Below, one piece after another: positions 18,441 through 52,400 of a stretch of DNA of 64,000 nt (its first letter is position 1; every line of letters starts with the position of its first letter). The stretch is taken from the NCBI GenBank assembly GCA_051294905.1, contig CM119371.1, positions 28,956,001 through 29,020,000 on the forward strand, read 5' to 3'. Below the pieces are notes generated by a model. The model was not told the origin of the DNA. It searched no databases and saw only the letters and a program-made list of their open reading frames with translations. Source of the stretch: Botryllus schlosseri. Lineage: Eukaryota. The translations under genes were made by a program, and so were the position numbers.

Positions 18441-18639
18441 CCAGTCGCCGAAATGACCTGTGCGCCCGCAGCTTGAGCCGCACGTGTCAAATGAGAGCCA
18501 CAGATGAAAATACTGAGTGCCGTGTCGAGATGCGAATTTGGAATTGTGTTCGTCGCACGAAAGGATTTATTGTTTTAGTTCCGTCTGATACGTGTAAGCG
18601 ATTCCAATATATATTCGTCAGATTATATATTTCCATCCA

Positions 18640-24400: not shown

Positions 24401-27400
24401 CCTGGAGTTAAACCATAAGTAGAATCATCAAATCTTTGAACAGATTGTTCCTCGCAGATTCAAATTTACATACACTTTTGAGGAACGGCACAGTCGCCAT
24501 TCATCATAAATTTTACCAAATTGAGTATTGAGGATGACCACTGACCAGCTCTTGACAAAGTTTCTGACGTGCGTACGTGATCATTACATCATTGTTTGAT
24601 TTGTTTTAAATGTATATAACATATTATACATAGATATCATCTCCATAATTCCTCGGTCCCTATATAATTATATAAAATTATCGCGCTATAGCTACTAATC
24701 CCAATTTGATATAGTGCGAATGAGCTCAGATGTTTAATGCGGCCCGCGAGCTGCTTTATAGCGTCCCTGTGTACTCGATGGGACACATAAACGGTGGAAT
24801 TTTTCATTACAGTACGAAAATCCAAGCTGGCTGGGGGATTCGGATTTAATCGATGGATTTCAATGGAAGGGAGGTAAAAATCCTATGACCCATGGGATTC
24901 TGATATACAACGAGCCTTTCATGGTCAAGGTTGGAAGAGAAGATGTAAGTTTGTGGCATGGGTGAAATAGCATATATTAATGTACACGATGCCTAGCGAC
25001 GACTTTGGCCACATAATGCCACAATGATGAAGTACATAATGACCGGACCGGACAATGTATTCGGCGTCTGAGTATATGGCTACGACGATATTGAGCAGAG
25101 TGTAAAACGGGTTTCTGTACTTGCACCAGATATTACCGCAACATGTTATTCTGCAATAGCCAACCCCCCAGTCGCACGGAGTTGTTTTTTTATGATACAA
25201 TAAATATATGAAATCAAGATTGACCTCGTCAGCCTGCTGGGTTTTTATCATCAGACAACGATGTAGATTTCATTGATTGGTTGAATAAGCATCATTCGCT
25301 GACTACCTACATGTAGAGTATTTCGCTCTTGATGTTGTGTGATTGCGAGTCAAGCTCACGGCAGAGAGTCACTAAATATTCACAAATGGAAAGCTGAATA
25401 TTGCGAGCAAACTTTTGTAACAAAGCAACTTTTGAGATTGTCAACGCGCATGCTCGTTTAGTGTTGATTTTTTTATGTTGCCAGCGTCATGCATAGAGTG
25501 GGCCGCAGTTGATATGCAATAAATTTCAACCAAAGATGTTATAATGAAGTGAAAACTGTTATATATGAAAAAGGTTCACAGTGCGTAACCTACCAACGTT
25601 CGTTTGTGAACGTGAACCTCTAAATTTATGAGGTTCACACACAAAACGGGAACGTGAACCTCACGTTCACACCCTCCCTAGTGTTAACCGGGCAAAAACA
25701 AATATAAATTAGAGTGTTTGAATAATAATTCGCCCACAGTATGCTTGGTATGCCTGTGCTTGATTCCGTTGTCACGCATTTCGACAGCCTTATACTTACA
25801 AAGTTTTTAATTCGGTATTACTTCGGTTAACACTTCCGTTACGTGAGCGTATATACTTTCAGGTTGCTGTATTACTGATGGACACGCAAGGGTTATTCGA
25901 CAACAACTCTGATAAGAAGCTATGTACCCAAATATTTGCGTTTAGTACCCTGCTGAGCTCCGTTCAGGTCTTTAACTTATCACAACAGATTCAGGAAAAC
26001 GATTTGGAATATTTACAGGTATTATAGGTCGTATTGCAATGATGTGATGATGCTTACTCTGAATCGAAGCAAACAGGAAACCTTAAATATGATATTTATA
26101 GACTCAACGGTCACCATGTCCCTTTGACAAATAAAAAGATACTTTATTTACCATGTTGGCTTCGAGTTAAATATAATATGACGCCCCACTGCCTCATTTC
26201 GGAAATCGTGATTTTTCTAGTGGTGTCCTGTCACAGAAACTGTCCAATTATGTTCGTTGTTGATTGAGATCATGTTGTGCTTTGGGTTTCGTAGCCTATG
26301 TTCTATTCGATTTACTGGATTAGCTACTGAGCCAGGAATGGTTTCTCCATTTGAGTCATTACGCACAATTATAACGATACTGGTGTGATAAAGTAAACAT
26401 TTATAAGTGAATACTTTTACCTGAGTGATTTGATTACGAATCTATTAATAAGGCGTGGAGTCGATTATATTCGGGTATCATTAAGCACGTCGTCATAACC
26501 GTATGGACGATTGGTAAAGTTTCTCATACGGATATTTTATGCGGCCGCAAAGAAAATGATGACAGTTACACACCACAGCGAAGATGATTAGGTATTTTTG
26601 ACTTTATGTATTTCGCTGAGCTTGATGTCAATACTGTAGCTCAATCACTATACTCACGGAAATTCCACTAAAAATTTTTCAGTGGCGAAATAGCGCTGTG
26701 ATGAAACCCACAGCTGCAACGCCAATGTTGTAGGAGGTTACTCTAGGCTCCTACTCGCCACCTCATCCGTGTAAGCGGTGTCATATTAAAGCCTAGAAGT
26801 GTGCCGCGCTGCAAGTCGGCAAATACGGGATAGAAAATAAGAAATATAGGCCTGGTGTAAAAGACCAATTGACCATAGTAGTCGACTAACACCATGAATA
26901 CCACAAACAACCGCGTTACCATGTTCCGTATGTCGTGCATGCTCCGATACGACCAAACAGCGATTCCTATAAGCTTCAGAGTGGAAATAACGAATCGCGA
27001 CTAGAATAATGTTATTGTTGATGAAATAACTCGTTTTAAGGGTCGTATAAATTCGGTACTCGAAGAAATCGTTTCTCAATCCTGGACTGATGGAATCATT
27101 AATATACGGTTACCGTATTTTGGGATCCTTAAAGGAGTAGACTTTTTACAAATCATAAAAGTTAGACTACTTTACTAGAAAACTGCTGATTCCCGTCCTA
27201 CACCCGGAAGACCCGCTCGAATATCCACATTACAGATTTCGCGTCATTATGGAGCTTTTAGTTGTTCCTGTACAGTGGCCTGTCTGTCAAAGCTATGAAG
27301 GAGGACGAATTCCCAAAAAGGAGGACATTTTCGATTTCCGGAAAAGGCAGGACAAATCCTCCTAAAGGAGAACGCTATATTATTACAAATGATACTAGAT

Positions 27401-30400
27401 TCGAATTGCAGTTCTCGAACAGTTGTGCCCAGCTCTAACAGGGAATTGTTCACGTTAGTTTTCGTTTTAAATAATCAGCTCATGCTCTATGCGTGATATT
27501 AGTTCCACTTTACGTGTTTACTTCGTAAACATGACACGACACTTGCATCAGATTTCATATATGCTCACTAAGTGAGCATATATCTATTGAGTATTGAGAT
27601 AATTCCGTCTACGGATAAAAACATATCAAGTACCCTCACTGATTTGTACAATGATATCGTTCAATTGATTTATGTTGTGTCGAGATTTACAGTGCGTGCG
27701 ACCCTTCGGCAACCCTCGCGTTCCCGCTTTTGTTGACTAAACGCGTGATACATTGTAAGTAAATTGTAAACATGGCGATGATAAAACTGTTGCACGGATC
27801 CACACAGGAATATCGCAGTCGCAAGGAATGTAGAGTTCTGCGTCTCCCATCATAAAATTTAGCACGCTTCAGTTACAGATCTTTAGTATTACCGCAAACA
27901 ACATCTTTACATTGCAAATAGGTAGTTCAAATTCTCAAGAATTAAACGGCATCCTTACACCCATGACGACCTGTGGTAACACCACGGGTATAGTTGTCCA
28001 ATCTCGCGCTAGCTGGGATTTACCAATGATCTCCTCGCAGGCACGGATGTATATAACTTTTGCAGATAATATTCATGGGCCATACTAAACACAAAGTATG
28101 ACTGCATATGATTGAAAATACACCCACTGTGTAGAAATGTGATTTACTAGCTCCGGACTTCGATCGTCAATTATATTGATTGCAATAACAACGTTTCTAA
28201 AGAACTGCAATGACTTCGACACGTCTAATCTTGGAGCAGAATATAGATGCCCCGAGACCCCTCGACCTATTTCTCATTATCACCATGCTCGTTGATATTT
28301 TAACTATACTTGATAACCGTACTACTCGAATACGAACAAAATATAAAGAAATGTATTCATTGCGAGTTATACTGGGCTTTATGGGGGCCCGATTTTTGAC
28401 AACAATAAAATGTTCATTTGTTCAATATTTTTTACGAATCATACTAGTGGCTGTGGTTGCAGCGCTGGCCTTCGTGAGCAAAAGGATAAGGCGTCGGACT
28501 TGTCATCACTACATTAAGGATTCAAGTCACTTCGGGGTCTTATTGTTTTGTACGCAGATGGCGCAAAGTGTTGCCATTACATGGCTGCATTCACGAATGT
28601 TTTTCGCCGTACATCGCAGAATGCTGTTACGACGCAGCTTGTATCTAGGGCTGGGCACAATGATTTGAGTACTCGAATCTGAATCCAGTATTAATTTTAA
28701 TGATTCGATTCGAGTAGTAAAATACGATTTTCTCGAGTGCTGAAATTATACTCTCCTCGCCACTGAAAGCTAATTTATCGACGAGAATTACAGTTTCAAT
28801 ACTAATTTTCACTGTTGAAACCTTGGAGCTTTGATTAGCCGTATCGTAGCATACGAAACATATAGTACAAACCTACGAACGTTACTAGAAATAACACATT
28901 TCCGAAGTCATAATCATCCCACAACATTGTCATCAAGTGCAATGAAATCGGCATGGTCGAAAAAATACCAAGTATCTTTAATGTGATGGATAACAGGAAT
29001 TATAGTCTTTGTGGTCGTATAAAAGGTACATATTTGAAATTCGACATATTACATTATGTTGTGACGTCATAATGGGTGCTACTGGATTACTCGCCTCGCC
29101 GCGAAGCATTTCACGTGATTCAGAATCGAATCACTCAAGTACTCGATTTTGTCCAGCCCTACTTGTATCGGTGCTTGACTCTAGTGTGAGTCTTCTTCAA
29201 TAAATATACGCGAAAATTCACATTGGACACTCGCCAATGTGACATTGCTATGTTAATGGCACATATCTCTTCGAGTGCCCTGATAGATATAAAATCACAT
29301 ATAATTACCAATGTCAATGAACCACGATGATTTAACATTTCTGTATACTTTATAGTGCTTTACGGAGTATGCCAAAGCCAGCCAAGCAAAGAAAATAGCA
29401 GACGATCCGATTTTCCAAGTAAGATTTATCTTCAATATTCGGTGACTGTACTTTTTAGCTACTAAATTATCATTCTACAAACTATATTTCATTTATGAGT
29501 AACGTGTATATAGCAGGGTTGTAATGACTCGAGTCATGACTCGACTCGAGTCAGACTCGAGTCACGAATTTTTGGTGACTCGACTTGACTCGAGTCATTT
29601 TCTTGAAAAGGGAAAATGACTCGACTCGACTCGAGTCAATATTTGGATTGACTCGACTTGTACTCGAGTCATTACGCATGACTCGACCCAAGTCATTGAC
29701 TCGGCATATTTTATATGACTTGAAGATGAAGAAATTTGCGAATCGTACCGGCTAGATCAACGCTATGACGAATTCTGTCGATAACGCTATTTGTCGCCAC
29801 TGCTTTCATTGCAGTCGTCTGATATGCCGCCGTAAAAACAACAGACAATGTCACATATAGTAGCAATGCATTGTACACAATCATCCTGTGATGAAGAGGT
29901 AATGAATCCTCCGCAATCAAAGTACTCGAGACTTTTTAATTATATACAAGCAAACAATCGAAGCAAAGTTCAATTAGAGGCAATGATATACATCAGATGG
30001 TCAAGTATACTTGGAAGAGACTGATAAGCTCATGAGTAGATTTGAAGGCGATGATTCTTTGCATTATTGGGCGACCAGAAATAATGAGTATCCAATACTC
30101 TTCAGTGTGGTTCAAAAATGCTTGTCAATTCCTGTATCTAGTGCACCAGTGGAACGTGTTTCAGTAGATGTGGATTTATTCTAAGGCCATGCCGCTATAA
30201 CATATATGAGGATCTCCACTCCACCTAAGTATTTTTGAATTGTAACTCATCATTGATTTGATCTGCTGTCAGTGAAAACACACAATACACTCCACTCCGT
30301 CCATTTGACGATTTGTTAGGTATGTGCATTGTGCACGTGAGATGAATGGATAATGTTGTGTGATGTTTGTACAATAGGGTTGTTCAAAATTAACTTCAAA

Positions 30401-33400
30401 ATTAACTGGGTGGCTACTTGGTAAAATTGTTATGTTGCATAAAAAACACACTGAATCTGGCCTAAGTTTAAAAAGTAGAATCAATGATATGAAAGGAGAA
30501 AATTTTATATTTGAAAATAAAGGGAGTGTTTTTGTTGAGAAATTATTTCATATAATATAATTAGATGCTAGTAGTAAGCCGACTATTTTTCATATCCAAA
30601 ATATTCCACTCTAATGAATTCGCTTTTTCTTATTGGAATTGAGCCAAATTTGCTATGAATCATATTTTACACGATATAACAATATCATGAGGTTGGCCGG
30701 TAAAATTCGAAAATCTCTATTTGTAGTTAATCCAAAATTTCCTCTCATATTAGTAATGCTCCGGCGGCTATTTCGGGAGCTGAGCAGGCAAGCTGACCCT
30801 ATTTTAGTCAACCACCTGTTAATATGAAAGAAAAACTATACGTCTACATAAACCTGCATCTGTTGATTCTCTATCAGCTGTTATCTAGACGTGAATTCGT
30901 TGGTTCTCTATCAGATAACATATGGAATGAATTCGTTGATTCTCTATAAGCTATAAGCTAATTCAGGATTGAAAACATGAGTTGAACATGACTTCAATAC
31001 TGTGACTTGGACTCGACTCGAGTCATAACACTATGACTCGGACTTGAGCCTTTAAACGATGACTTGGACTCGGACTCGAGTCAGTGATGAATTGAAAATG
31101 ACTCGACTTGACTCGAGTCAAAACCACAAAAGTAAGATTGACTCGTGACTCGGAACAATGTGACTTGGTTACAACCCTGGTATATAGATTGATCTCGAAA
31201 TGGACACTATGCATCGCCATAATATATTCGTGGCGTCACTTGGTTGCCCAAGTTATTTTACTTCCCCGATAATTGTCATTCTGACTTGAACTGTGTCGGA
31301 CAATATCACCATTTGTAAAATATAACGGAACATTACGATAGGGTTGCCATTGCCATACGTCCGGAATTTCCCGGACATGTCCGGAATTTCACTGAAAAAT
31401 CTGCGTCCGGGAGGAATTTTTAAAATTTGCCTAAATGTCCGGAATTTTGAAGGCTTGAAGTAGGCTCAAAGGTTTTTCGTAAATCAACATAAACAATATT
31501 ATTTTCGAGCAGATTTATGCTATTCAAAATTCTTCTTCGCGCCGCACGCGAGTTAATGCAACGTATATTAATATTAATATGGGCAGCAGTCACCACCCTC
31601 AACAAAGAATACAACCAAATTAAATATAAATAACCATCATTTACTGAAATAAGTCTGATCGTAATCACAATTTTAAGCTAACGGTATATTCCTAGAGTTG
31701 GTTAAGGCCGATTGGAGGCTTCAGTCACAGACAGTGATTCCTAATCTTGGGGTCGTTTGCCTTTATCTGGGGATTGCGATGATCTTGGCCGTAATCAGCT
31801 TCCTAGGCCGTCAGTAAGTTTGCGCAAGCTGAATTTTTTAGTATTCAGCATATCAAGCTTTCAGCTTATCAATCTTTGAGCTGGGCCACGGATCATTTTG
31901 TTGGAAATGTTGGAAATGAGGTCACGACCATAAAAGGTTAGAAATCACCGGATGTGCAAACTGCTGGTGCATTTTATAGTAGCCTAATATATGGAGGAGT
32001 CAATAATATTGACAGAATTCATTCATAAAATTTAACAGCCAAATGTATATAGTAAGTGCCCAAGAAGTTACATCGACTACCCTATGGTGGGCCCAAGATT
32101 AGTGCTTTTTTGGGGGCCGAAGGGTGAAGAAAAAATGTTGTTTCGGGCGTGATTAAAACACATACCCAGTTAGCCGCGCCGACCTAACAGTATAGCAGGG
32201 ATGTCAAACACAATCCCGAAAGGCCAGACACGGCCCAACAGACGATTTCATCCAGCCCGTGGACAAATCTATTGCAGACCCTACCAAGTAGCAATCACCA
32301 GAGCTCACGTTACAGATGGCCCGATTACGGAGCTATGCTCCACTCCATTCCTGCATACCAGTGGTTCCCAATCTTTTTTCACCCATGTACAATTTCGAGG
32401 TTTTATGCAGTGCTCGCGTACCACCTACATAAGATAAGCGCGTGGAAGGCGGTCAAAAAATGTTTCCATAAACTGCCTATTAATGATTTCTGTAGTGAAT
32501 TAACTTGGAATTCTTGTGGTAAAATATATTACCACGTAGGCCGTCATTTGTGGGATTGCCCCTACCCACGACGACGACCTTGTCACGGCGACGCCGGCTT
32601 CAAAAAACTCAAAATCAACCCCAACTGAATTAGTAACTCCCTTCGGTCACAAAAAACAGAATCTACTCGTTTACCACGTTGAAGACCTTCGCGGACCACT
32701 AGTGTATACAATCGATGGGCAATGCTTTGCTAGTGTGACGTCATATCGACAGACAATGTGTCACAGCACATTTTTGAATACGCTAGTGGGTGCTAAAGAG
32801 TGTCTGGAATTTGCTTCACAAAATTATGGTAACCCTACATTACGATTATAGTTTCGCAGGCTTTCAACACGAGGCTTCCAGTAAACTCACTATCAATGTG
32901 TTTTGCCAGAAACTGATGTTTGTTGTCCGCGATTGGCAAGGAATAGACGACCACGATTGGGGCTTGGACAAGGCCACGGATGGAAACAACGAAGGGTACT
33001 TGACAGGGGTGCTGTCTTGCACATCAAACAACAAGGAGCTGACAAAGGTCAGGGAACACCTGCATAAAAGTTTCAACGATCTACAATGCTTTTTGTTGCC
33101 CCATCCCGGTTCAAAAGTGGCAGTCACCCGAAAGAATCAACAATTCAAAGGAGAGTTGAAAGGTACATGCTGCTTGGAAGTTTCAAACATTATTCTTTTA
33201 CCCGTAATCCAAATCTTGAAATTAGCCGGATGGTTTGTCAGAGGATCTCAAAGGAATTGACGGTGACAATCCTCAGTTAAACTTAGTTCAGTTAGGTCAG
33301 TTGTTGTTTCCGTACATCAGGGGTGTCAAACATATGGCCCACGGGCCGCACCCGACCCGCCAGGTGATTTCGTCCGGCACACGAAGGAATTCTGAGTAGA

Positions 33401-39400: not shown

Positions 39401-42400
39401 CGTTAGAGCTACTGTTTTATTGGTTTGTAACCGTATTCAGCCGCCCAATCACCTTATTATTGCCAATTCTATCGTTAGCGAACAGAGGTAATCGAACCAC
39501 TATGATCCGTAATGTAATGTAAGTACCGTAATATACTATGTAGTGTAAGCTTGATAACATAGTATACAAATGAAAAACAAGGGTACGGGTTTTAAGGTAA
39601 TATTTTGGAATCATTTTACTGGTGCGGCCCTCGAGCGATCGGAAGGTGTGAATCCGGCCCGCGAAGTTGGTTGAGTTTGACAACCCCTGCTGTACAGTAT
39701 TCATGACGTTCCGACATCAACGGTTAGTTTAGATTGGACCAACTTTTATTTATTATGATTCTCCAACAGCTGACACGAGGCACGGCCAAATTTCGTCCTA
39801 CAGGCTTCTTTCAGACATGGTTTATGCGAATTTGATGGCGCTACGGAGCCTAGATAAACCCAGCTCATAATTATGAACATGTTCTTGAGTTAATGTCGGC
39901 CGTACAATAACCTGTCCCCTATCGGCGTTGCAGCAGTGGAACATATTACACCAATACTCTTCGCCACAGGTCCCAGTGAATATACATACCTTTACATAAT
40001 TGGCTTCACGTCTCCATCCGAACTGCCCTCTTCCCCGGCACGTTACGTTGTGTTTCTGTCCATTAGACATGCCCTCTCTATTCACAGATATGCGTTATTG
40101 CTATTGCCGGTCGACATGGATATTCAGACTTTGCGATGATTCACTGATCCATTCCAATATCAAAATCTTTTACAATATTGTAATCTTTTGACATGATTAA
40201 ATGAATAATCGACAAGTCGAATGAAATTATAGGTTATGAAGTGAAAATATTTTCGGCAAGTCATTGTCCCGCGACTGCTAATACTTAAGGCTGCTGCACA
40301 CTGGCTTTGCGACACGACTAAAACAGGTAATTCCCCGATCATGTCGCGCTCACGATCGCGGTAGTTGCGTTCTGCTGCACACTGGGACACCGAGTCGTAA
40401 CGTAGGCCCATCTGTTCTGTACCTACTTAATGATTTCGTAACAGTATAGGTTATTGGTTATTACTATTGAAGAACACATCAAGATACTTCCTACACAACA
40501 CATTGCTGATGCTCGGAATTTTGATAAGGAATATACACCATAATGTCACTAATATATTCTCAAATTCGAAAACTCAGTTTACTATTTCAACTCAAGACGC
40601 AGATGCACAATATACAGTACCCAAGACACAAAGAATATAAACAAGAAGGTGTCTAATCGTTGAAACGCCCTGTCATAGTCCATCAATCAGATATCTTTAT
40701 AATATATAGGCCTACTCTTCTTGGTCTACCGGTACTTTCGTAATGTCAAGCATGTCACTGGCATTGGCGGGCTAGCGGTCATGTTCTCTGTTATTCATCT
40801 TGTATTGTGAACATATAGTAATCTAATTATCAAATATATCTTCATTTCGTTCTTCTATCTTTAAGTTATCAAGTTGAGGTTGAATCATTCTTTTCCTGGG
40901 CTTGTTGGATATCATACAGCGCACTGCGTCAATCCCGCACAGCCTTCACTGTGTAACCCTAGATAAATTACGCATCTGGTACATGAGAATGTTAAATTAG
41001 GAAGTTGAACGATTAAAAAAGATTGCAACAGCACCGTCGAAATAAGAGCGCGTGCTCATGTTGTACTGCGACTGAGCCCGCAACTCGCGACAAAGTTCAA
41101 AATTTTCAACTTTGTCGGTGAGTTGCGCAGCCCACTCGCCGACGCTTTGTTGCGTAGTCTGGCGACGCGGTGTGCATGGTTTTGTCACAGACAGGCGCGA
41201 TTCTCTCGTTTTGTCGTGTCGCGAGAGCCAGTGTGCAGCAGCCTATATATGCAAGATGACAAGGATTAATATGTCGGCTATCATGTGTTTTAGAATTAAA
41301 AGCCGATAACAAATGGAAATTATTATGTGGGTGTCGTCAATACTCGATCTCTATCCGCAGATATCGACGAGGAATTCCTGGAAATGGTTCAAGAACTGGC
41401 TGATATCTTACTAAACCCGAAAAGTATAGTAACAAAGAAAATCAACGGACAAACAATAACTGGTAACTCACTGGTAAATTACGCTATCACGTGCGCTCGA
41501 AGCTTTACCGGCGGCAGTTTACCTAATCCACAAGCCATGCTTCAGGTGAGAAAGATAGGCTGACGCGTTCGCGCACACATCATAAGTATAAGTCTTATAC
41601 GATATGGTATATCCTATATCCGTGGTTCTCAACCTTGTCTTCGCGGACCCCCTTTGGACCGTCACGGACCCCCACGGAACCCCTCCACAGTTTTAGTTAA
41701 AATTTAGCTCAATTTTCGTGCAACCGTGTAAATATTAACTGTAGGCTGCTGATGAACAGCAACAAAATGAATTTTCTTGAAACTAACATATTATTTACGC
41801 AGAAATAAGGAAGGCTTTTAGTTGGTCAGAGCGAATTCTGTAGCTGCATTTCTTGATACACGCAGTCGTGTCCGCGCCGTCGATTTGCTATGAAGGAGTG
41901 TCCACAAAGATAGTTATATGATCGATTAGGTTTGGGTATGATAGCAGCATATATGGCACCGAAATTGAGAAACGGAGTTGAACATATAGCGTTCAGCCTA
42001 TAGTCATTTCTGTGTAGTAGATCATCATGAAGTTTTTCTGGAATAGCTGTTTATCACACGAGAAAATGGAATTTTGAAAACATTGTTTATTTGAAAACAC
42101 CAACAGAACATCTCCAAACTGTAATATTTTTGTATCTCAGTGGGTTATTGACAATTTGACAATTTAAAAGACTTTGTGCAGTAGACTATTTCATCTCAAA
42201 CGGCCGTTCTGTTGATATCAGTTCTTAAGTTTTAGCAGTTATGAAGAGAAACTGCTTCGAGATTTCTCCAATTTTTTTAAAAAAATAATACAAATCGGGT
42301 TATCTACTATTTTTCAAATTTGGAGACTTCACGGACCCACGATTGAGAACCACTGTCCTATACTATATACGAGGTGTCCGTAAAATTTTGTATGCAGTGT

Positions 42401-45400
42401 GGCAACTGTCAACAACTCGCGTGCTAAACATGTCGCGCTCGATTCTAAACAGAGGCCATATATCTAACAAATTTTTCGGGTGTCTTGAGCAAATTACCTC
42501 AACTTCGATTCGCGACTTTAATTTGATGCCTACATAATACCACTTTTCCAAGGTTACAATTGTATATTGTCTCTCATAGCTAAATTGACGGGGGTTGCTA
42601 ACCGTTGTCGTACGCTATATTTCTAACGGACCTGTGGTTTAATTTAGACGCAAGAGGAAGTTACGAATTTGCAGCTTTTGAGAGCTTGTACAGAAGAATA
42701 TGTGGCTCAAATGAAAAAGGTTGGTTCCCGCATTTATAATGGTTCTAATCTCAATGGAGAAGCATCTCATGTTTTCCAAAACTTTCTTTGAACTTGTCTG
42801 ATGGTAGTGACCTCATTCAGCAAGTATCACCATTATTCATTTCGGTGCAATGCCAGACGATTATTATCAATAGATAATTTGCAAGTCCGTATGGGACATT
42901 CATATCTAACTCTTCATGTGATTTCAATGCATTCGCAATTCCAAACCTAAATCATACCATCACCTGAGGTGTCAATGTGGCTACCTTTGCTACGCAAGTA
43001 GAGGAAACGCCGTTCAATTACAAGTAGAAGTAGAAAATGGAGATCTGAGAACTACTTTCAATTCAAATAGTAGATTTGGTGAATCGGAGTTAGCCTCTTC
43101 CGAAATTGAAGAGCGCATCTTCGCGACTCACTCAAAATGACTTATGGCACCACAAACAGTTGCAATGTCGGAAATGTATTCACTTACCGTGATAGCGGGG
43201 TTGTATGCCTCTAGGTCAGGGGAGGCGGGTAACTTATTCAGTCGGCAGGCCTGATAGCGGAACGAAGCACTTGGCGGGTCGGATTTATGAATCGATACCT
43301 TAATCTCGTATTTTTCCATCAACACAAGGAATAAATCGTAAGTTTCAAGCATGGAGGCCGAAAACAGTTAACGTAATGTACTTCGATCTTAGCCGGTAAA
43401 GGCAATGAAACATCTGTGGCTGATCAAAGTTCTTTAAACTCTGACTGCATGTCGGACATAGAAACCTTTAGTGAAAACTGCACGTGAACATCAGTTTCAT
43501 TTGAACTCAGCTTTGTCCTGCTCATGTTTGTTGTAGAAACTGTTTGCAAATGCATGTATACCGGACGAGTTTTAGCTTCACCCTGAATGCCTTCACAGTA
43601 AAAAAGATTTTGTGAGCAAAAGCGCCTCTCGCTTCAAGTATGATGTTCAACTCATTCATGCGTACAAAGTGATCAACCAAGCACTACGAAAAAAACTATA
43701 AGAACACAAATATAACAAAGACCTGAAAAATAACCTAATGCATCATCATTTGACGTCGTAACCAAGTAGGTCGAGTGGGAGATTGCGGCAGATTATGACC
43801 GCGGGTCACATTATCATGTAACAGCAGAAACTATCTGCGGGCGGCTCAAATAATCGTTGAGTTATATTTTTCATCTTGACAAGTCACACACAATGTACAA
43901 TGCGATAAGACACAATGCGATGTAATGAACAGATAGGAGGATGTCGAACGGCACGCAGTTGCGATTCTTTTAATCTAACACCCACCTTGGCCTAGAGTGC
44001 CCGATGTCACAGTTTTTTTCAATGTCGATCTTGTTGAAGCCGCGGCCCTTTCTACTAGTTCTTTCCATTCCACGTGATTTCTTTCGTTCCTTGTGCTCAA
44101 AATCATATCTTCAGCCGGGTACGGCCCGCGGACCGTATGTTGCCCGCCCCTGCTCTAGACTTTGGTTTCGTGTACCACGGTTGTATATTCACACACTTTA
44201 TTCGCTAGGAGTGTACTTTATACTTGACAGAATTCAAAGTGTAAAAAGTATGTGTAGTTTTGAAGGTATGAGTAAGTAGTCCAAATAGTCAATAAAAGGA
44301 AAACCTACTTGAGTAGCGTAACTTCAAATTCAGTTTTAAACTCTTAATATTCATTTTCGTTGTTTGTTGACAAACACAACTCCGAATGCATGGTAATTAC
44401 CGCAATCCTGTACCATGACCTTCACTGCTTACAAAACTCCGTCACAGCATATGCGGACTTTGGATCTGACTCACAATGTAACTATCTCGTAAGCAGCAGC
44501 AGCAGCAGCTAAATGACAATGTAATACACGATTCGTACCGATTTAGATCACAAGGGACCGGTACGTTTCTGACGAAGAACTCAGATCTTACCACGACACA
44601 ACGTGCAACTCGCAGCTGAAGTCATTTCGGCGTAGCGCGGGTAAAATCAATTCTGGGACAAGCGATCTGTATGGAGCAAAACTGCTTGCTTCTATGCTGG
44701 AGCAATTCGAGATCTTCCAGAGGACAAACTACGCAAAAGGGGTAAGAAACGAAAGCAGGAGGCTTGGTGCAGCCGTAGCCGAGCACCACCTATAGTGAAA
44801 GATGAGTCATTAATCAGTTTGAGGTAAATAAATAGGGAATGAGACTTTATGATTGACTGATTGTACTCAAATACAGTAACCACATAACTTTCCTTCTCTA
44901 ACAAAGTCGAGACATGATGTATTAGCTCCATTTGCACATTCTTCCGAACCGTTATGGATTTAGAAAGTGTTTTGAAAGTCCTCGAAATTTTGTGGAAATG
45001 AACAACATTGTGCGATTCCATAGACCATACTAATCAGGAGACTGGAAAGACGCAGTAGGCACGCAGTGCTATGGCCGTGCAGTACAGTGTAGCCAGACAG
45101 TAACGTACTATAAGCGCTATGCTGACTGGATGCTTCTGTCTGGAACGATATTCTACGAACTTTTGTACATTCTAGATGTGAAGTTTTTTCTCGTCGACTG
45201 AATGTAACTATATTTTGCCGGCAACTGCACTACACCATACTATAAACTGTTTATTTGTCACGACTCTCCTAAATCGAAGATATCTCCTTTTTATCAGAGA
45301 GAGATAGCCAGAGCAGTGAGAGAAAAAGCCAACCGCTATGTTCACGAATACGTCATGATGATGGAAGAGGTGAGACATTGTAGCAGGTATATTTTTGAAT

Positions 45401-48400
45401 AGGTTACCCCGGTAGGCGGGCTGCGGAGCAGGATTTGACGCATACGGCCCAATACATCGTACCAAAAACATATGGTTGACGATAGGGATGGTGTGAACGT
45501 GAGGTTCACGTTCGCGTTCTGTGTGTGAACCTAGGAAATTTAGAGGTTCACGTTCACAAACGAACCTTGGTAGGTCGTGCACTGTGAACCTTTTTGATAT
45601 ATTACAATTGTCACGTCATTATAACATCTTTGGTTGGAATTTTTTGTATTTCAACTGCGGGCGACTCTGTGCATGGCGCTTGCAGCATCAAAAATCAACA
45701 CTCAACGAGCATGCACCTTGATAATCTCAAAAATTATACCTGTTTTCTTAGAAAAGTTTGCTCGAAATATCCAGCTTTCTATTTGTGAATATTTAGTGAC
45801 TCTCTGCTGTGAGCTTGACCCGAATTCAAACAACATCAAGAGCGAAATACTCTACATGTAAGTAGTCAGCGAATGATGCTTATTCAACCAATCAATGAAA
45901 TTGATATCGTTATCTGATGTAAAAAATCTAGCAAGTGGGTGCGGGGTCCATCTCGATTTCATATGTTCATTATATCATAAAAACCAAATCCGTGCGATTT
46001 GGGTGTTGGCTACTGCTGTATAACTTGTTAATGGGGTGAAACTCGTTCAACCATAGTGTCCTATATGGTGTCGACACAAGCAAATCGCACGGTTCAATGA
46101 AATTGTATCACGTCACAGTTTCCATTTGGCTACAGGCAATTTGACGGTGATTTTTGACCGACTTGCCGAGCATCAAATTTGATAAAACGGGTATCAATCG
46201 AAAGCTGCCGCCGTACTGATTACGAAAATATAAATTTTATTCCGCTCGCGGCCCTGGAACCCCCACAATCAGCCTCTAATTTTTCATTGTTATGGAGATT
46301 GGCATTGGGACGCAACAATGCTGTCTGGCGAAACGACAGACGCAACAATACTGTCTGGCTCCCTTTTTCTCGAGCACCTGTCTCGTTTCGCTAGACAGCA
46401 TTGTTGCGTCCCAATGCCAATCTCCATAACAATGAAAAATTAGAGGCTGATTGTGGGGATTCCAGGGCCGCAAGCGGAATAAAATTTATATTTTCGTAAT
46501 CAGTACGGCGGCAGCTTTCGATTGATACCCGTTTTATCAAATTTGATGCTCGGCAAGTCGGTCAAAAATCACCGTCAAATTGCCTGTAGCCAAATGAAAA
46601 CTGTGACGTGATACAATTTCATTGAACCGTGCGATTTGCTTGTGTCGACACCATATAGGACACTATGGTTCAACACTCTGCTCAATATCAACGTAGCAAC
46701 ACTCAGACGCTGAATAAATCGTCCGGTCTGGTCCAGACCGTTAAGGCGTAATCTTATATTTCCTTGCAAGTCTTCGTCGAAATTGTTGGTATAGCGACGG
46801 AAGATGTTGATTTTATGGCATTATGATATTTGATTGCTCCACTGGATACATTTAGCGACGTTTAAAAATCAGTCTGTACTTCTACACTGTGGCATCATGT
46901 GGCCCGAGTCGTCACTATAGGTACCGTGCAGCGACTGTAGCCTACATTAATATATATCACTTCACTGAAATGTTTGGTTGGAATAAGCAATCTGACATCG
47001 CGTGACGTCACGGGTTCACGTTCGCGTTCACACAGAACCTTTGAAAAAGGTTCGCGTTCACACGAACCTGAACCTTTTAGAGGTTCACACCATCCCTTCT
47101 TGACGATGTTAATAAAACCAAGAAGTAATACGTCCGAGACTCCACATGCTTTTAGTAGCCAAACCAACACAATATTGGCACTACAAATCCCTGGAAATTT
47201 CTATAACATATTCATATACGATCACACAGGTGATGTTTCGTCAATTCTTACAATTTCACTCATAATCATAATGCAAACATATCCCCAAATCAATTTTACT
47301 GTTGTTGTTGTTGCTGTTGTTGTTGGAGGAAAATATAAGATAAACCTCCAACACTTGGTTAGGAATTCTGGAGTCGACCTCGGTCGGACTCGAACCCACA
47401 ACCCATTGGTGTTGCAGCTGCGGATTTATACCACTACGCTATCTCGCCTCTGTAAAAAACACTGTGGAAGTGGAAGTGCAAGTATAGGCTAAACTCATTT
47501 GATTACTCGGAAAAGTATCAGCGCTTCGTTACCGAACCCCTCTGCTTACCACTTCAATTTGATTGTGATACTACGGTATCGGGTGATGTAAGCCACTTGC
47601 GCGAATATACGTCTGGTGACCATTTCCATCGCTTCATTTCCCGTCATAGAACACGAAAGACAGTGGTCTGGAAGACAACGCGTTTGAGAAATGTCATCAA
47701 CTCAGTCTGCAAGCGAAGTTGACCGAATTCCAAGCGACTTGCAAAGGCCTGCACGGGTTTTCGGAGTCCCTGGAGGCGTTCCACATGGATGTAAAATTCT
47801 GTTTGGGCGTACTCACGAGGATCAACACCGACAAAAGAAATTTGCAACAAATGAAGACGGTAGGTGTCTACTAGAAATTAGTACAGGGTGTGTTGGAATT
47901 TTCGTCTCCATTACATGTAGAAATGGCGATTTCCAAGTCATGTCCAAAGAGCTCCGAGTCGAAGTAGGAAATGGAATGTCTCAAAAGTACTCAAGTATAG
48001 GTACTTTCGAAAAGCAGATTTGGTAGAGGGATTACGTACTTTCAGCAGTTAATCGGTGGTGAATATTTTCGAAATTTAAATAGTATCTTTGCGACTAACG
48101 CAAAATGACAAACGACACTGTGAACAGGTGCAATTTTCGAAAATGCATTCCGTCACCATGATACTAGAGCTATTCCGCCCGGGAGTCATGGGAGTTTCAC
48201 TAATAAAGGCGATCCAAACGTATCCCAAATCACATACTACTTGACAATGCCGAAAGAAGAAAAAGCAAGTAGCTTTACCTGAAAAAACCGCGAAGTTGAA
48301 ATGTTAGTAGTCAAAAACAACCATTGAATAAGAATGGTGCAAGTGATTAAAATCGTACTTGAGTACCCCGAAAGTACTTCGTTACTGACCATGACCTTCT

Positions 48401-51166
48401 CTGGGTAGCGTCTATGCCACCTCCATTTTATGACTTGGTAATTCTCACTGCATCTGCATCTATATCTACTTCACAAAGTATCACGCCATAGCTAATATAA
48501 TTCACCACGTCCCTGCATACTTTAACCATCCGCCCAAATTATCATCGGTGCACCTACAAAAATGACTCGTTAAAATTGCTTCTTGTACGATATGGTTCAA
48601 TTGAAAAACGGCGGAAATACGGATACGCTAGATTACTAGATAACACATTGATCTGTTCTTTCGAACCATCAAGGCCGTGTGCGGGTTACAAGCAAAAGTG
48701 GCGAATCCTAAATGTCACTTCCATCTTTGTACATGTATATTACCCTCGCTTTACCACATTTATGCATGTTATTACAGACTTCTACCTTGTCATGTTAATG
48801 TTTTGCAGAAAGACGATGATGTTAGAGTGAGGAATGTAATTCACGAGTGCGTAGAACTGTATAAAAAGCATATGAAAAAGGTAAGTCGGTTGCTGTAAGA
48901 GAATTGTGGTATTCGCATGAGATACATATCTGTATCTATATATTAGATCGATAGACCGTATACTCTTTCGTTTGAACATCCTCCAATCTGTTCATTACAT
49001 CATATTGTGTCTTATATATCGCATTACTTGTCTTGAGAATGAGAGGATGAGAGGATGAAAATAATAAGACCGCGGATTATTATAAGCCTATCGCAGAACA
49101 TGGGATAGCCTACCAGCCCCGCAATTCATTTCTGGTGTCTGATTATTTCAGTTTTCAAGACATTACATGGATTACTCGCTTCTCGTGAACGAGCACGGGA
49201 AGGTGAGAGGTCAGATTTTCAAGCACTTTGAGCAGAAGAGCAAGCTACTGACCGATTCGTCGGGGCCGTCGTCCGAACTTTCCGATAAATTACAGAACGA
49301 ATTTTGTGCCGTGGAAGCCGCGAATGAGACGAATCAAGTAAGCCTTGGTCGATTTCTATTAGCGTAGCTTCGCATACTGTGCAAGTGCATGAGTTGAAAT
49401 GGGTGCAATTATTGACTTGCCACAGCGTAGGGTTAGGCCGTAGGGTGAAAATCAGGCCAATGCTTCATGGTACAAAATTTCACTTTCATTCCCATTCCAA
49501 TGGATGAGAAGAGTCAAATACACCACTCCTCACGGATATATAACCCACGGATTGTAATGATTCGAGTCGGGTCGTGAGAGCCACTTTTCGAGAATTTTAG
49601 AGTCACTTTTTGAGTACCCTTGCAATTAAAAGCTATATTATGAACGACAATTCTGGTTTCGATACTTTAATTTATGTTGCAAGTTCGAAATCTCGATTGG
49701 TGGTATCAGAGCATCGAAAACATGTATCACAAATCTATAGGCACTGTAGTGCAGCATCGACCCACCTGCAGAATAAATATTTATGCTTGAAAAATACGAA
49801 ATTATACCATTGAAGCGGTTTATATATTTTGTTTTTATACATTTACCAAATCCTTCCAGCCCAGCCCTGATATAGGTCTACTCCGTTAGGTAGCCTAATA
49901 ATCTTTGCTATGCATTATTACGATAGTATTATTGGGTATACTTGCGTTCCGTACCAGCACGTCACATTTACGATATTTGTTTTTAGCGCATGCTTGGACT
50001 CGTGCTTCAACAGAAGCGAAACAAACTCATCGTGCAGTATCGAGTGACAATGTCGAAGGTGGGAAACATATCATACTCGGGCCTGATCCCATTTTTGCAG
50101 TTTTACTGCTGCTTACTGTAGTTTTGGAATGTGGTATTTTGCACTGTAAGCTATAGCTTTACATAAATGTTCTCTTTTATTAATAACATCTTTATCCAAC
50201 TCCATTACAGCCTCCCCCGGAGGTGATCGGTAACGAAGTACTTCTACTTCTTCGAAGTGGTCAAATACTACTTCGACTATAGTATACTGTTTCAAGTGGT
50301 TACTTTCTTGTACTGTAACATTCTGGATTTTTTCAAGTAAAAAGTAAATTTTGGATATCCTTGATTCACTTCAAACAGTGACATTGTCATGACAGCCGGT
50401 TCGGAGAATCCCTGTATCAGGCTAGGTAATTATATTTTGGAAAATCGCATATATATTTGGTGTCAATGGTCATTTTGCGTTACTCTCGAAGATACACCCA
50501 GAAATTTGGAAAGTGGCTGCCTCGGATTAACCGCTAAAAGTATGCGACCCATCGAAGTATAATGATCACATTTCAGTTCTGATTCTACTTGAGGAAATTT
50601 CGTTATGTCTGAAATTATTATTGCTATTTGTGATTAAGTGAAAATTTACGGCTTAACTTCGTTTTCTACTTTTACTTCTACAGTCATTTCGCGAAGGTTC
50701 ATCTTGCTTCACACAAATCAACTTTTTGGAACTTTCATTTTCTGTGTATCCCAGAAGTAGTTTTGACGTGAATCGGAAATACTCCTTCCATGAAATTGAG
50801 GAGAAATACACGGCGTCACTTCGGCGTCTATTTGAGTAGCAACGATGACTGGTTTATCCATCTTCAATATTTCAGGGTATGGCAGACGCCTACATCGAAC
50901 CAAGCGTGCTCGAAGCAACACACAGCAGCACTGAACAAAACGTAGTTGACCGCCTGATACACGATGACGAAGTGTTGGCGATTTGTACCTCGCCAATCAC
51001 GGACACTTTCGTTCGCAAGAACGTGGAACAGCTGAGGAAGGATATTCAGCAGATTTACGAGAAGTTGAGCCTCACGAACGAAGAAAACAGAAAACTCTAT
51101 CCCCAAACCACTAGAGGAGTGAAGGGTTTTTTCAAATCGATATGGAATTCGAAGAGTCCGTCATAA
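21293..51166 (+). CDS. ATL: Atlastin-like large GTPase, 769 aa, 15 coding exons: join(21293-21440,22562-22764,24813-24944,25863-26018,29356-29418,32910-33162,41361-41545,42648-42719,44547-44741,45298-45369,47650-47859,48809-48880,49152-49337,49987-50058,50876-51166); four tandem 3HB repeats, no TM hairpin
   Basis: Spliced by hand: all introns GT..AG, phases match, total 2310 nt with a single terminal TAA. G1 GAFRKGKS, G2 [16 protein letters not shown]3 LLMDTQG, G4 VVRDW, plus atlastin-typical [13 protein letters not shown] and LPNPQAMLQ. Family assignment is firm; orthology to a named ATL paralogue is not established. Confidence 0.9.
22562..22764 (+). CDS. ATL: ATL-like exon 2 (P-loop)
   Basis: ttgcag acceptor; [12 protein letters not shown]...[20 protein letters not shown]; donor GGA|GTGAGT. 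Confidence 0.95.
23033..23508. mobile_element. MITE, tagggttaccata family (inverted partial copy at 63678-64000)
   Basis: TIR tagggttaccata...tatggtaagccta; flanking repeat gataatg; internal tandem unit of about 65 bp. Confidence 0.8.
23948..24770 (+). mobile_element. Degenerate hAT/Charlie-like MITE (homologue at about 56821-57688)
   Basis: Shared catggtta.ga.gctgtca.cattgtctgtcctggagtt core and gcggcccgc subterminal motifs; boundaries approximate. Confidence 0.6.
24813..24944 (+). CDS. ATL: ATL-like exon 3 (switch I)
   Basis: ttttcattacag acceptor; [44 protein letters not shown]; donor GAT|GTAAGT. Confidence 0.93.
25140..25680 (-). mobile_element. Partial inverted copy of the GTTCAC-repeat MITE family
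   Basis: Reverse complement of the first ~520 bp of 4053-5036; ends cctcacgttcacaccctcccta. Confidence 0.8.
25863..26018 (+). CDS. ATL: ATL-like exon 4 (G3 DTQG)
   Basis: ctttcag acceptor; [52 protein letters not shown]; donor CAG|GTATTA. Confidence 0.95.
26682..26912 (+). mobile_element. tRNA-derived SINE family A (internally deleted)
   Basis: gtggcgaaatagcgctgtg...cagctgcaacgccaatg...ctaggctcctactcgcca...ggcctggtgtaaa...caaacaa. Confidence 0.75.
28646..29161 (+). mobile_element. hAT-type MITE (copy of 5146-5657)
   Basis: Same TIRs and body as 5146-5657; perfect TSD cttgtatc. Confidence 0.9.
29356..29418 (+). CDS. ATL: ATL-like exon 5
   Basis: tttatag acceptor; [21 protein letters not shown] (atlastin LFTEYG...PFQ); donor CAA|GTAAGA. 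Confidence 0.9.
29514..31179 (+). mobile_element. hAT deletion derivative with GACTCGAGTC arrays and a transposase remnant
   Basis: TIR cagggttgtaa...ttacaaccctg; perfect TSD gtatatag. Confidence 0.92.
30050..30246 (+). pseudogene. hAT transposase C-terminal (hATC dimerisation) remnant
   Basis: [37 protein letters not shown](frameshift)[11 protein letters not shown]...VFLNCN. Confidence 0.85.
32910..33162 (+). CDS. ATL: ATL-like exon 6 (G4 RDW)
   Basis: ttttgccag acceptor; KLMFVVRDW...[11 protein letters not shown]...FKGELK; phase-1 donor AAG|GTACAT. Confidence 0.95.
33908..35863. mobile_element. Large fold-back element with inverted arms of about 750 bp
   Basis: tagggttgtccaaaatttggaaaatctc...gagattttccaaattttggacaacccta; arms 33908-~34660 and ~35150-35863; perfect TSD atgtatat. 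Confidence 0.92.
36545..36681 (+). repeat. Minisatellite, unit of about 34 bp, x4
   Basis: caaggtctttcttta(a/g)taatacacttcttggagt repeated. Confidence 0.9.
37846..38005 (-). mobile_element. SINE family A, 3' half
   Basis: (tttg)n tail plus catggtatttgtcgactactatggtcatttacaccagaccgatatt. Confidence 0.7.
38076..38876. mobile_element. hAT-type MITE, caggaccgtaac family
   Basis: TIR caggaccgtaac...gttacggtcctg; TSD gttgggaa/gtggggaa. Confidence 0.82.
40288..41244. mobile_element. PIF/Harbinger-like MITE
   Basis: TIR aggctgctgcacactggct.t.gcgacacgac...gtcgtgtcgcgagagccagtgtgcagcagcct; TWA-like flanks (tta/ata). Confidence 0.75.
41361..41545 (+). CDS. ATL: ATL-like exon 7 (end of G domain and linker)
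   Basis: tccgcag acceptor, phase 1; [35 protein letters not shown]...LPNPQAMLQ; donor CAG|GTGAGA. Confidence 0.95.
41620..42355 (+). mobile_element. Buster/Charlie-like MITE (same family as 51184-52400)
   Basis: TIR ccgtggttctcaac...ttgagaaccactg; TSD tcctatat/tcctatac. Confidence 0.85.
42648..42719 (+). CDS. ATL: ATL-like exon 8 (3HB repeat 1, helix 1)
   Basis: 72 nt; [24 protein letters not shown]; tttaatttag acceptor, AAG|GTTGGT donor. Confidence 0.85.
43880..44100 (-). mobile_element. SINE family B, 3' part
   Basis: acacacaatgtacaat...gatgtaatgaacagataggaggatg matches the reverse complement of 59040-59143. Confidence 0.7.
44547..44741 (+). CDS. ATL: ATL-like exon 9 (3HB repeat 1, helices 2-3)
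   Basis: [27 protein letters not shown]...FQRTNYAKG; atttag acceptor, GGG|GTAAGA donor. Confidence 0.85.
45298..45369 (+). CDS. ATL: ATL-like exon 10 (3HB repeat 2, helix 1)
   Basis: 72 nt; [24 protein letters not shown]; tttttatcag acceptor, GAG|GTGAGA donor. Confidence 0.85.
45483..47098 (+). mobile_element. GTTCAC-repeat hAT-type MITE carrying a palindromic insertion
   Basis: Colinear with 4053-5036; TSD gttgacga/cttgacga. Confidence 0.9.
46051..46668. mobile_element. Near-perfect palindromic MITE with CCATAG termini and a 5-bp TSD (superfamily unclassified)
   Basis: Arms of about 290 bp with very few mismatches; ttcaa at 46046-46050 and 46669-46673; absent from the homologous site in copy 4053-5036. 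Confidence 0.9.
47300..47448 (-). mobile_element. SINE family A, 5' half
   Basis: Minus strand ggcgagatagcgtagtggtataaatccgcagctgcaacaccaatgggttgtgggttcgagtccgacc. Confidence 0.8.
47650..47859 (+). CDS. ATL: ATL-like exon 11 (3HB repeat 2, helices 2-3)
   Basis: [27 protein letters not shown]...[16 protein letters not shown]; tttcccgtcatag acceptor, ACG|GTAGGT donor. Confidence 0.82.
47884..48402 (+). mobile_element. Degenerate AGTACTT-type MITE (inverted relative at about 50217-50720)
   Basis: Shared aagtacttcgttac end and taacgcaaaatgac core; boundaries approximate. Confidence 0.55.
48809..48880 (+). CDS. ATL: ATL-like exon 12 (3HB repeat 3, helix 1)
   Basis: 72 nt; [24 protein letters not shown]; ttttgcag acceptor, AAG|GTAAGT donor. 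Confidence 0.88.
49152..49337 (+). CDS. ATL: ATL-like exon 13 (3HB repeat 3, helices 2-3)
   Basis: [26 protein letters not shown]...VEAANETNQ; tttcag acceptor, CAA|GTAAGC donor. Confidence 0.85.
49987..50058 (+). CDS. ATL: ATL-like exon 14 (3HB repeat 4, helix 1)
   Basis: 72 nt; [24 protein letters not shown]; ttgtttttag acceptor, AAG|GTGGGA donor. Confidence 0.82.
50876..51166 (+). CDS. ATL: ATL-like exon 15 (3HB repeat 4 helices 2-3, amphipathic tail, stop)
   Basis: atttcag acceptor; [16 protein letters not shown]...[22 protein letters not shown]...[17 protein letters not shown]. Confidence 0.88.
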   Translation, partial: GMADAYIEPSVLEATHSSTEQNVVDRLIHDDEVLAICTSPITDTFVRKNVEQLRKDIQQIYEKLSLTNEENRKLYPQTTRGVKGFFKSIWNSKSPS

Positions 51167-51183
51167 ATCCACAGATTCTAGAG

Positions 51184-52400
51184 CAGTGGTTCTCAACCTT
51201 TTTGTCTTCGCGGACCCCTTCCGGACCGTCACGGACCCCGCGGACCCCCACGAAGCTTTAGATCAAATTTAGCTCAATTATCATGCAATCGCCATTTGAC
51301 TTGTGCAAGTGATAGCTGTAGGCTTAGTTATAAAGAGCAACGAAATGACTTTTCTTGAAAATAAGATCATACTCTTCGTGTTGAAATTGGGATGACTTTT
51401 AATATTTCAAAGTAAATTCTGCAACTGCATATCCTTAAATACGGGGTGGTGTCTTGAAAATACGCGCCTTCGGTTTGATATGTACGAGTGCCGAAAATTC
51501 ATTCCCACAATTTTAGGTTATGGCGAATGTAATAATAACGCGTAACGCTTCCGACGACACATTTGGGTATGATCGCAACAAATATGGCACCAAAATTGAA
51601 AAGTGAATTTTTCAATGTACATACAACGTCAAGCCTGATCATTTCTATCTAGCACAGGGGTGTCAAACATACGGCATGCGGGCTGCATCCGGCTCGTCAG
51701 ACCACTTCATCCGGCCCGCGAGGCCATTCTGAGTAGATTGAAAAAAAATTAATCTCATTATCCGACAGATTTTTAACAGAAGTTGAGATTTTACTACTAA
51801 ATAATTCGTCGCAAATAATCCAGCATATTTTTCACCACGAATAGGTCGGACCAACGACGCATATCCGTTGTCCAGTGACATTGTCCACTAAAACGGGCAC
51901 AGAAATATTTCAACGATATCCTCGTTACAGCCACTCTTATAGTAGGTAATAAATGTATTCAATCGGCCAATTATCGTATTTTTGCCAATTCCATTGTTTG
52001 CGAATAACGTTGTTGCTGGAATAAAGTGGGCCCACATATTCCGTGATATCAATAAAGCATTCCAGTGAAAAGCAACGATATGGATGTCGACATAGCATAT
52101 TGAAATTATTTGACTGGTCCGGTCCGCGAGTGACTAAAACTCCACAAAATATCTCCAAACAGCAAAATGTTTGTATCAGTAGGCTATTGGCAATTTTGGG
52201 ATTAAAATGAGCCCGCACAGTACGATATTGCATCTCAGACGGTCATTCTGTTGATGTGAGCTCTGGAGTTTTACTAGTAATGAAGCGAAACTGTGCCCCG
52301 TGATTTCCCGATTAAAAAAATACAAACTAGGTTATTAAATATTTTGAGGCTTCGCGGACCCCCTAAAAATGCTTCGCGGACCCCTGGTTGAGAACCACTG
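51184..52400 (+). mobile_element. Buster/Charlie-like MITE 17 bp after the ATL-like stop codon, with a nested fragment from 51656
   Basis: TIR cagtggttctcaacc...ggttgagaaccactg; perfect TSD ttctagag. Confidence 0.92.

Follow-up and report, generated by a model that had tools for sequence, protein, structure and literature searches.

An atlastin-like gene of Botryllus schlosseri whose repeated exon pairs are read as four serial three-helix bundles

The stretch analyzed here, hereafter the window, comprises 64,000 nt of Botryllus schlosseri contig CM119371.1 (all positions are counted in the window); its composition is that of eukaryotic DNA with introns (~41% G+C), and it carries on the + strand an atlastin-like GTPase gene that starts upstream of 22.56 kb and ends at 51.17 kb. 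Atlastin is a membrane-anchored fusogen of the endoplasmic reticulum (ER) with one three-helix bundle (3HB). Judged from its sequence, the stalk of the protein encoded in the window is a series of four diverged copies of that bundle, each written on its own pair of exons, and we hold this account of the structure and origin of the stalk with high confidence.

By reading splice sites and running tblastn with P0010, an “atlastin-3-like” protein of Styela clava, we were able to place 14 exons, which together form an open frame of 720 codons (Table 1). Neither comparison with the N-terminus of P0010 nor a splice-phase scan upstream of 22562 revealed the exon bearing the ATG (the scan returned six candidates, none of them convincing); a total of 15 exons is plausible. 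Within 18000–20000 of the window G+C rises locally to 0.46, an open reading frame (ORF) occupies 18275–18715, and phase-compatible ATG..GT candidates end at 18593; this region, put forward as a candidate, possibly holds the gene's first exon and its promoter.

Transcript support was sought over 32700–51600 in three contig sets from three studies (X1, X3, and X6) and in one raw RNA-seq run (X10). A single X3 contig of 2,658 nt contains all nine joints examined, from 33160>41359 through 50056>50874; the X1 contigs cover six of the nine and the X6 contigs five, whereas raw X10 reads cross four joints (2–4 reads each). All of these joints are GT..AG. With the eight stalk exons in series on one X3 contig, the exon pairs are used serially and not as alternatives to one another, a point on which the earlier sequence-only reading of this DNA had called for RNA evidence. 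That reading had described four 72-nt exons in phase 0 with partners of 195, 210, 186, and 291 nt, and the AG/GT borders and RNA joints agree with it throughout: between the short exons there is only one open AG..GT interval of 195 nt and only one of 186 nt, and where two candidates of 210 nt exist, the RNA favors 47650–47859. Purifying selection on the gene, proposed at the same time, is likewise supported at the sequence level, with synonymous changes making up 13 of the 16 exonic variants best supported between window and RNA contigs (eight of nine in the stalk exons; 126 further differences exist besides these).

Table 1. Exons placed for the atlastin-like gene (positions in the window) and further atlastin-family loci of the same genome
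Feature	Position	Strand	Evidence
P-loop exon	22562..22764	+	Pfam GBP PF02263 E 9.4e-10; tblastn with P0010; first exon placed, acceptor 22561/22562 inferred
G-domain exon, switch 1 region	24813..24944	+	tblastn with P0010 residues 94–141, 52% identity; AG/GT borders
G-domain exon, DTQG motif (G3)	25863..26018	+	Pfam GBP E 5.3e-18; 86% identity to P0010; borders read
Short G-domain exon, 63 nt	29356..29418	+	tblastn with P0010; borders read
G-domain exon, RDW motif (G4)	32910..33162	+	Pfam GBP; RNA joint 33160>41359 in X1, X3, X6
End of G domain and linker LPNPQAMLQ	41361..41545	+	RNA joints on both sides; 61% identity to P0010 residues 296–357
Module 1, 72-nt exon, 3HB helix 1	42648..42719	+	AG/GT; joints 41543>42646, 42717>44545
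Module 1, 195-nt exon, helices 2–3	44547..44741	+	RNA; 3HB profile match, protein residues 335–417, E 6.6e-12
Module 2, 72-nt exon, helix 1	45298..45369	+	AG/GT borders; RNA joints
Module 2, 210-nt exon, helices 2–3	47650..47859	+	RNA; 3HB profile match, residues 426–489, E 1.2e-3; hhalign to canonical 3HB 95.4%
Module 3, 72-nt exon, helix 1	48809..48880	+	AG/GT borders; RNA joints
Module 3, 186-nt exon, helices 2–3	49152..49337	+	RNA; 3HB profile match, residues 518–597, E 7.4e-8
Module 4, 72-nt exon, helix 1	49987..50058	+	AG/GT borders; RNA joints
Module 4, last exon: helices 2–3, basic/aromatic C-terminal tail, stop	50876..51166	+	RNA; 39% identity to P0010 residues 654–746; 3HB profile match, residues 608–693, E 1.3e-4
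Further family loci	C6 9.85–10.36 Mb; C4 25.26–25.33 Mb; C10 0.85/1.36/10.49 Mb; C13 19.09 Mb; C2 2.84 Mb; C1 20.56 Mb		Genome search

The head of the protein is supported as atlastin-type, in keeping with the sequence-only reading. The Pfam GBP profile PF02263 matches three of the four G-domain exon pieces (E 1e-9 to 5e-18), and of the 40 positions that are near-invariant in a 145-sequence family alignment the window protein retains 37, among them G..R.GKS, DTQG, RDW, and the switch-1 Thr (which we take to be the P-loop and the other G-domain motifs as labeled here). Against the PDB, P0010 finds ATL3 at E 1.6e-83, RNF112 at 4.7e-31, and GBP5 at 1.7e-9, and aligns without a break to ATL3 residues 11–415, bundle included; the window protein is 66% identical to P0010 in the G domain and 23–37% in the stalk. 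Pfam scans at E ≤ 1 and E ≤ 0.1 returned nothing but the GBP N-terminal domain, with no RHD3/Sey1-type and no spectrin match. No membrane segment is seen beyond residue 300, where the highest 19-residue Kyte–Doolittle mean is 0.82 (canonical proteins pass 1.7–1.8), and the C-terminal end (..NSKSPS) bears no CaaX box.

Repeated exon pairs and the atlastin bundle

All four 72-nt exons are in phase 0 and bounded by AG and GT, and all four retain Tyr18 and Met22; every long exon has a His at position 15–16 with Phe or Leu 11 residues further on. The residue pattern noted earlier, including an Asn late in each long exon, holds in all four copies, and when the long exons are aligned the only columns without variation are the His and this Asn, the latter lying close to where the last helix ends. 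Direct Smith–Waterman comparison of the modules against 500 shuffles gives in-register alignments with z of 5.65 (modules 1 and 2), 5.98 (2 and 4), 4.21 (1 and 3), and 2.56 (1 and 4).

Relationship to the atlastin bundle, as opposed to mere internal repetition, comes from profile comparison. A 3HB profile seeded on five membrane-anchored canonical atlastins, and iterated over the stored relatives with the window protein excluded, makes four in-register matches in that protein, one per module (the E-values of Table 1 refer to a database of only 177 sequences). In hhalign comparisons, for which module profiles were built from five colinear proteins cut at the exon-pair borders, five of the six module pairs align over their full length at 86–96%, and modules 1–4 align to the canonical 3HB at 98 (98.1), 95, 78, and 93%; reversed templates reach at most 2.8% and column-shuffled templates at most 2.5%. 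That the modules are copies of the atlastin 3HB, as had been suggested from their residue pattern, is thus well borne out by the profile matches and their controls. Pfam gives only a sub-threshold TSC22 match in the last of the stalk exons, and none in the stalks of relatives.

Fold prediction used the Styela relative P0010 in place of the window protein. In the full-length P0010 model (pLDDT 77) the G domain and first bundle are confident and superpose on ATL1 (3q5e) with a TM of 0.89 and an rmsd of 3.1. The P0010 stalk modeled by itself (AlphaFold, 22 relatives) reaches pLDDT 90.6, with nine helices forming four 3HBs; three of these helices (residues 70–127, 160–220, and 252–307, of 56–61 residues) each span a module border (99/100, 193/194, and 281/282). 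The stalk is accordingly best pictured, as a model prediction, as a Sey1p-like rod in which bundles are joined by continuous helices; no fold-back α12/13 element is evident in the helix list of the P0010 stalk, whose coordinates were not inspected. The four serial bundles expected from AlphaFold are in this way obtained, if for a relative in place of the window protein.

Structural comparison of the P0010 stalk model places it among several helical folds. A Foldseek list against the PDB is headed by GBP helical domains and ATL bundles (rmsd 1.6–2.0). A VIA search against representatives ranks the ATL1 3HB first (Z 13.1), followed by RNF112 (11.7) and Sey1p (11.5 over 296 residues, rmsd 21); modules 1–2 match GBP1 residues 314–479 (Z 10.4, rmsd 3.8 over 164 residues), modules 2–4 match three spectrin repeats (Z 9.8, rmsd 10.9), and modules 2 and 3 are matched by structures of a single bundle. 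Of the elongated, GBP-like rod proposed from sequence, the predicted rod of serial bundles stands, but it resembles Sey1p or spectrin repeats as much as it does GBP.

Several observations weigh against the four-bundle reading. Modules 2 and 3 (z 1.91) and modules 3 and 4 (z 1.01) are not significantly similar when taken alone in the shuffling test, and the hhalign probability for modules 3 and 4 is only 38%. No significant PDB match comes from a profile built on the four long exons of the gene itself; two of the seven matches listed, both in register, are to ATL3 (E 0.71) and to fly atlastin (E 1.2). Modules 2–4 reach a pLDDT of only 50–75 in the full-length P0010 model, the relative that was folded is just 23–37% identical to the window protein over the stalk, its stalk model has no Foldseek match in the PDB at E ≤ 0.001, and VIA Z values of 9–13 can be reached by arrangement alone in helical repeats. 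With regard to the transcript, no data set listed for the stretch is registered as RNA, it is guesswork, their intron-less joins aside, that X1, X3, and X6 derive from RNA, and the raw reads amount to only 2–4 per joint.

The introns and flanks of the gene hold repeats of their own. Within the intron between the exons at 42648 and 44547, the segment 43880–44060 shows very high depth in all four runs (a bin of up to 18,520 in X6, ~289 per strand in X10), with hundreds of reads lying only partly on it and no tRNA or Rfam match; it is probably a dispersed repeat expressed elsewhere. A near-perfect inverted repeat at ~46060–46660, in which the ORFs 46234–46443 (+) and 46276–46485 (−) translate identically and the flanking ORFs are mirrored, looks like a foldback/MITE-like element in the intron before the exon at 47650. 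Similar sequence (..RTP..P.. in translation) occupies 41527–41700, directly after the linker exon, and 51182–51360, directly after the last exon, and is likely a repeated element; the RNA contigs cease to align at 51185. Elsewhere in the 64 kb there is no second atlastin-family copy, no Pfam match in 14 other long ORFs, no tRNA, and no Rfam family.

Paralogues, relatives, and the spread of multi-bundle stalks

A search of the B. schlosseri genome (495.5 Mb, 219 contigs) located the canonical atlastin gene of this species on contig C11 at 27.38 Mb. Its 3HB helix 1 (ATAEANNL...) lies on an exact 72-nt phase-0 AG/GT exon, and the exon that follows spans helices 2–3 and continues into the membrane region. 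At least nine further atlastin-family loci are present besides this canonical gene, some of them clustered (Table 1). The closest, on C13, packs four such pairs, each a 72-nt exon plus a long one, into only ~4.3 kb (its two bounded long exons measure 192–201 nt), and a C10 paralogue has at least three pairs; in every gene compared, the long exon starts at position 20–27 of the 3HB profile. The identical 72-nt helix-1 exon of the canonical gene, together with the exon pairs of the C13 and C10 paralogues, indicates that the module derives, by tandem copying, from the ancestral exon pair of atlastin. The duplication predates the divergence of the paralogues in this genome, and the old exon-pair duplication postulated from the window itself gains firm footing from the canonical exon and from the four pairs on C13.

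Beyond this genome the best relative is P0010 (756 aa), whose colinearity with the gene extends from the exon with the P-loop through the final one. When single exons were used in word-index protein searches, the last exon and the RDW exon brought up nothing, and relatives came only from the most conserved exon; an exhaustive search with P0010 recovered 3,331 proteins at E ≤ 0.001. Paralogues differing in repeat number, which the sequence-only reading had proposed to look for, are plentiful: 57 of 177 stored family proteins, a set biased toward P0010-like sequences, contain 2–12 bundles (E < 1e-3). Among tunicates these comprise six Styela clava paralogues and proteins of Phallusia and Clavelina; Bombyx, Ostrinia, and Heliothis have five bundles each, Planococcus, Halotydeus, and Darwinula are also multi-bundle, and the longest stalk belongs to P0039 of Darwinula stevensoni (1751 aa), with twelve 3HB copies behind one G domain.

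The C-terminal ends of these relatives vary. Three-bundle proteins P0067, P0096, and P0114 (barnacle, gall midge, and amphipod), along with P0151, end in the CaaX boxes CVIM, CQIL, CSTL, and CTIL; such a box on an atlastin-like head is, by its sequence, a putative lipid anchor in the style of the GBPs. P0011 and P0040, one of them from Styela clava, have four modules and a single hydrophobic tail segment at the end, so that the family appears to hold tail-anchored forms besides soluble ones.

A midpoint-rooted FastTree phylogeny built from 129 G domains, read without branch supports, pairs the window protein with P0010 as its sister inside a clade of tunicate-type multi-bundle proteins and places the lepidopteran clade apart, among single-bundle anchored atlastins. 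The tunicate modules also have no positional match to the lepidopteran modules. Separate clades and unmatched modules together favor repeated independent expansion, short of proof, and suggest that multi-bundle stalks arose separately in tunicates and in the silkworm lineage. One ancient multi-bundle ancestor for the tunicate and lepidopteran stalks is the less likely reading, finding no support in the tree or the module comparison.

Proposed mechanism and competing explanations

Dimerization through the G domain is a textbook property of this family, and by analogy GTP binding would dimerize the G domains of the window protein while its first bundle would swing against the G domain as in atlastin. 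Given these two steps, the rod could act as a lever or spacer. The basic/aromatic tail, standing where the membrane anchor would be, may provide peripheral and reversible membrane contact. The likeliest role would then be GBP-like cell-autonomous defense or membrane tethering and not constitutive ER fusion, a ranking that we make with modest confidence from three considerations: the expanded family, the fast divergence of the stalk (23–37% identity, compared with 66% for the G domain), and the precedent of the silkworm. The last of these is weakened by the separation of the silkworm clade from the tunicate clade, which makes transfer of function from the silkworm a weak argument. This mechanism and role are offered tentatively, as an analogy that may well prove wrong; for the explanation as a whole, a soluble four-bundle atlastin made by exon-pair duplication and serving in GBP-like defense or tethering, we lean toward acceptance.

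An alternative that we consider unlikely assigns the protein to ER shaping, as a soluble paralogue that uses its G domain to pair either with membrane-bound atlastin or with another copy of itself on ER-bound partners. In homotypic ER fusion it would regulate or lengthen the distance of tethering, in the manner of the long stalk of Sey1p. On the side of this reading, the G domain and first bundle are atlastin-like, a canonical atlastin is present in the same genome, the paralogues P0011 and P0040 end in one hydrophobic segment, and the four-3HB stalk of Sey1p is critical for fusion (PMC4576867). The window protein, however, has no membrane segment, and at least nine further family loci with a stalk diverging much faster than the G domain would be odd for a housekeeping ER factor; moreover, the sole studied anchor-less relative is cytoplasmic and antiviral (PMC4926086).

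A second alternative, which we regard as very improbable, holds that the apparent 3HB repeats are an effect of composition or heptads in a generic coiled coil, and that the protein is a scaffold resembling golgins, its GTPase head being vestigial. In its favor, Pfam recognizes no domain in the stalk beyond the weak sub-cut-off TSC22 match in the last exon, one Styela relative is annotated as golgin-like, and the corresponding silkworm region has been named a coiled-coil middle domain (PMC4926086). On the other side, modules and canonical 3HB align in register over their full length where the reversed and column-shuffled controls fail, and the intron positions repeat exactly and coincide with those of the canonical gene; the predicted helices carry loops at 3HB positions, solitary 3HB structures can be superposed on modules 2 and 3, and the G-domain motifs are intact. 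That the exon pairs are mutually exclusive, or the locus a decaying pseudogene, can be set aside with near certainty: X10 depth is low (0–1 fold over most exon bins) and no data set listed for this DNA has an RNA registration, but all eight stalk exons follow one another in a single contig, the junctions covered by two other studies are the same, 720 codons read without a stop, most of the listed variants are synonymous, and an annotated protein from a second species matches the gene in colinear order.

Returning to the soluble four-bundle atlastin, a wider generalization can be drawn that we consider possible but rather doubtful: tunicates and several arthropod lineages may independently have made soluble or lipid-tailed, GBP-like defense GTPases from atlastin by copying the 3HB exon pair, with stalk length (2–12 bundles) serving as an evolvable ruler, and the same process, in which one 3HB is duplicated and adjacent helices fuse, could explain the two-bundle middle domain of GBPs and the four-bundle stalk of Sey1p/RHD3. 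Apart from that generalization, the gene and its many relatives suggest that atlastin's head and bundle were rebuilt repeatedly as anchor-less rods of varying length, and duplication of a 72-nt exon with its neighbor, retained from the canonical gene, offers a concrete model for how the GBP and Sey1p/RHD3 stalks could have evolved. The natural length variants provide material with which the effect of stalk length on tethering or on the power stroke could be studied, and they bear on the use of atlastins in GBP-type defense in invertebrates, a review having asked whether atlastins took over GBP roles there (PMC9005921).

Comparison with known systems

Canonical atlastins (ATL1–3 and Drosophila; PDB 3q5e, 5vgr, and 3x1d) have in common with the window protein the type of G domain, its motifs, the linker, the first bundle, and the 72-nt helix-1 exon; the window protein differs in having four bundles instead of one, no transmembrane hairpin, and another tail. 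Further counterparts are P0010 and its Styela clava paralogues, colinear over all placed exons and four modules, whose automatic annotation contains no description of the repeats.

With respect to stalk architecture, a solved counterpart is Sey1p/RHD3 (PDB 5ca8), in which the stalk comprises four 3HBs with shared helices (PMC4576867). The nine-helix topology predicted on P0010 is alike, with the VIA score reported above accompanied by an rmsd of 21, whereas the G domain belongs to another family and Sey1p is membrane anchored where the window protein is not. Since the bundles of the window protein are recognizable sequence copies of the atlastin 3HB, the likeness to Sey1p is best read as parallel evolution. 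The resemblance to spectrin repeats is structural only, without a Pfam spectrin match.

GBP1, GBP2, and GBP5 are likewise soluble members of an expanded family, and their middle domain consists of two 3HBs sharing a helix, onto which modules 1–2 of P0010 superpose; GBP1 is described as beginning with two such bundles (PMC4576867). Set against this, the G domain of the window protein is far closer to atlastin, and the CaaX box present in some GBPs is missing from it. The silkworm protein BmAtlastin-n is reported to be anchor-less and cytoplasmic and to restrict BmNPV, and the silkworm has two more such anchor-less atlastins, all with a long “coiled-coil middle domain” (PMC4926086). BmAtlastin-n and silkworm Atlastin3/4 thus have in common with the window protein an atlastin-type G domain, a long helical middle, and no membrane segment, at a comparable size (770 aa for BmAtlastin-n, 720 aa placed here). 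Stored Bombyx “atlastin” proteins of 745–751 aa, which may or may not include BmAtlastin-n itself, contain five 3HB copies; the silkworm proteins fall in a separate G-domain clade and their modules do not match by position.

The architecture had at first been taken as unfamiliar, and that view stands in part. No account of tandem 3HBs encoded by exon pairs in these atlastin relatives turned up in the literature searched, nor did anything joining atlastin with tandem bundles, ascidians, or tunicates; the Styela clava “atlastin-3-like” entry, the anchor-less silkworm atlastins, and the Sey1p stalk, on the other hand, were already known. What appears new, by these searches, is the tandem-3HB and exon-pair reading itself, and the protein calls for no new category, as the kinds to which it is compared here are the familiar ones: atlastin, Sey1p, GBP, and BmAtlastin-n.

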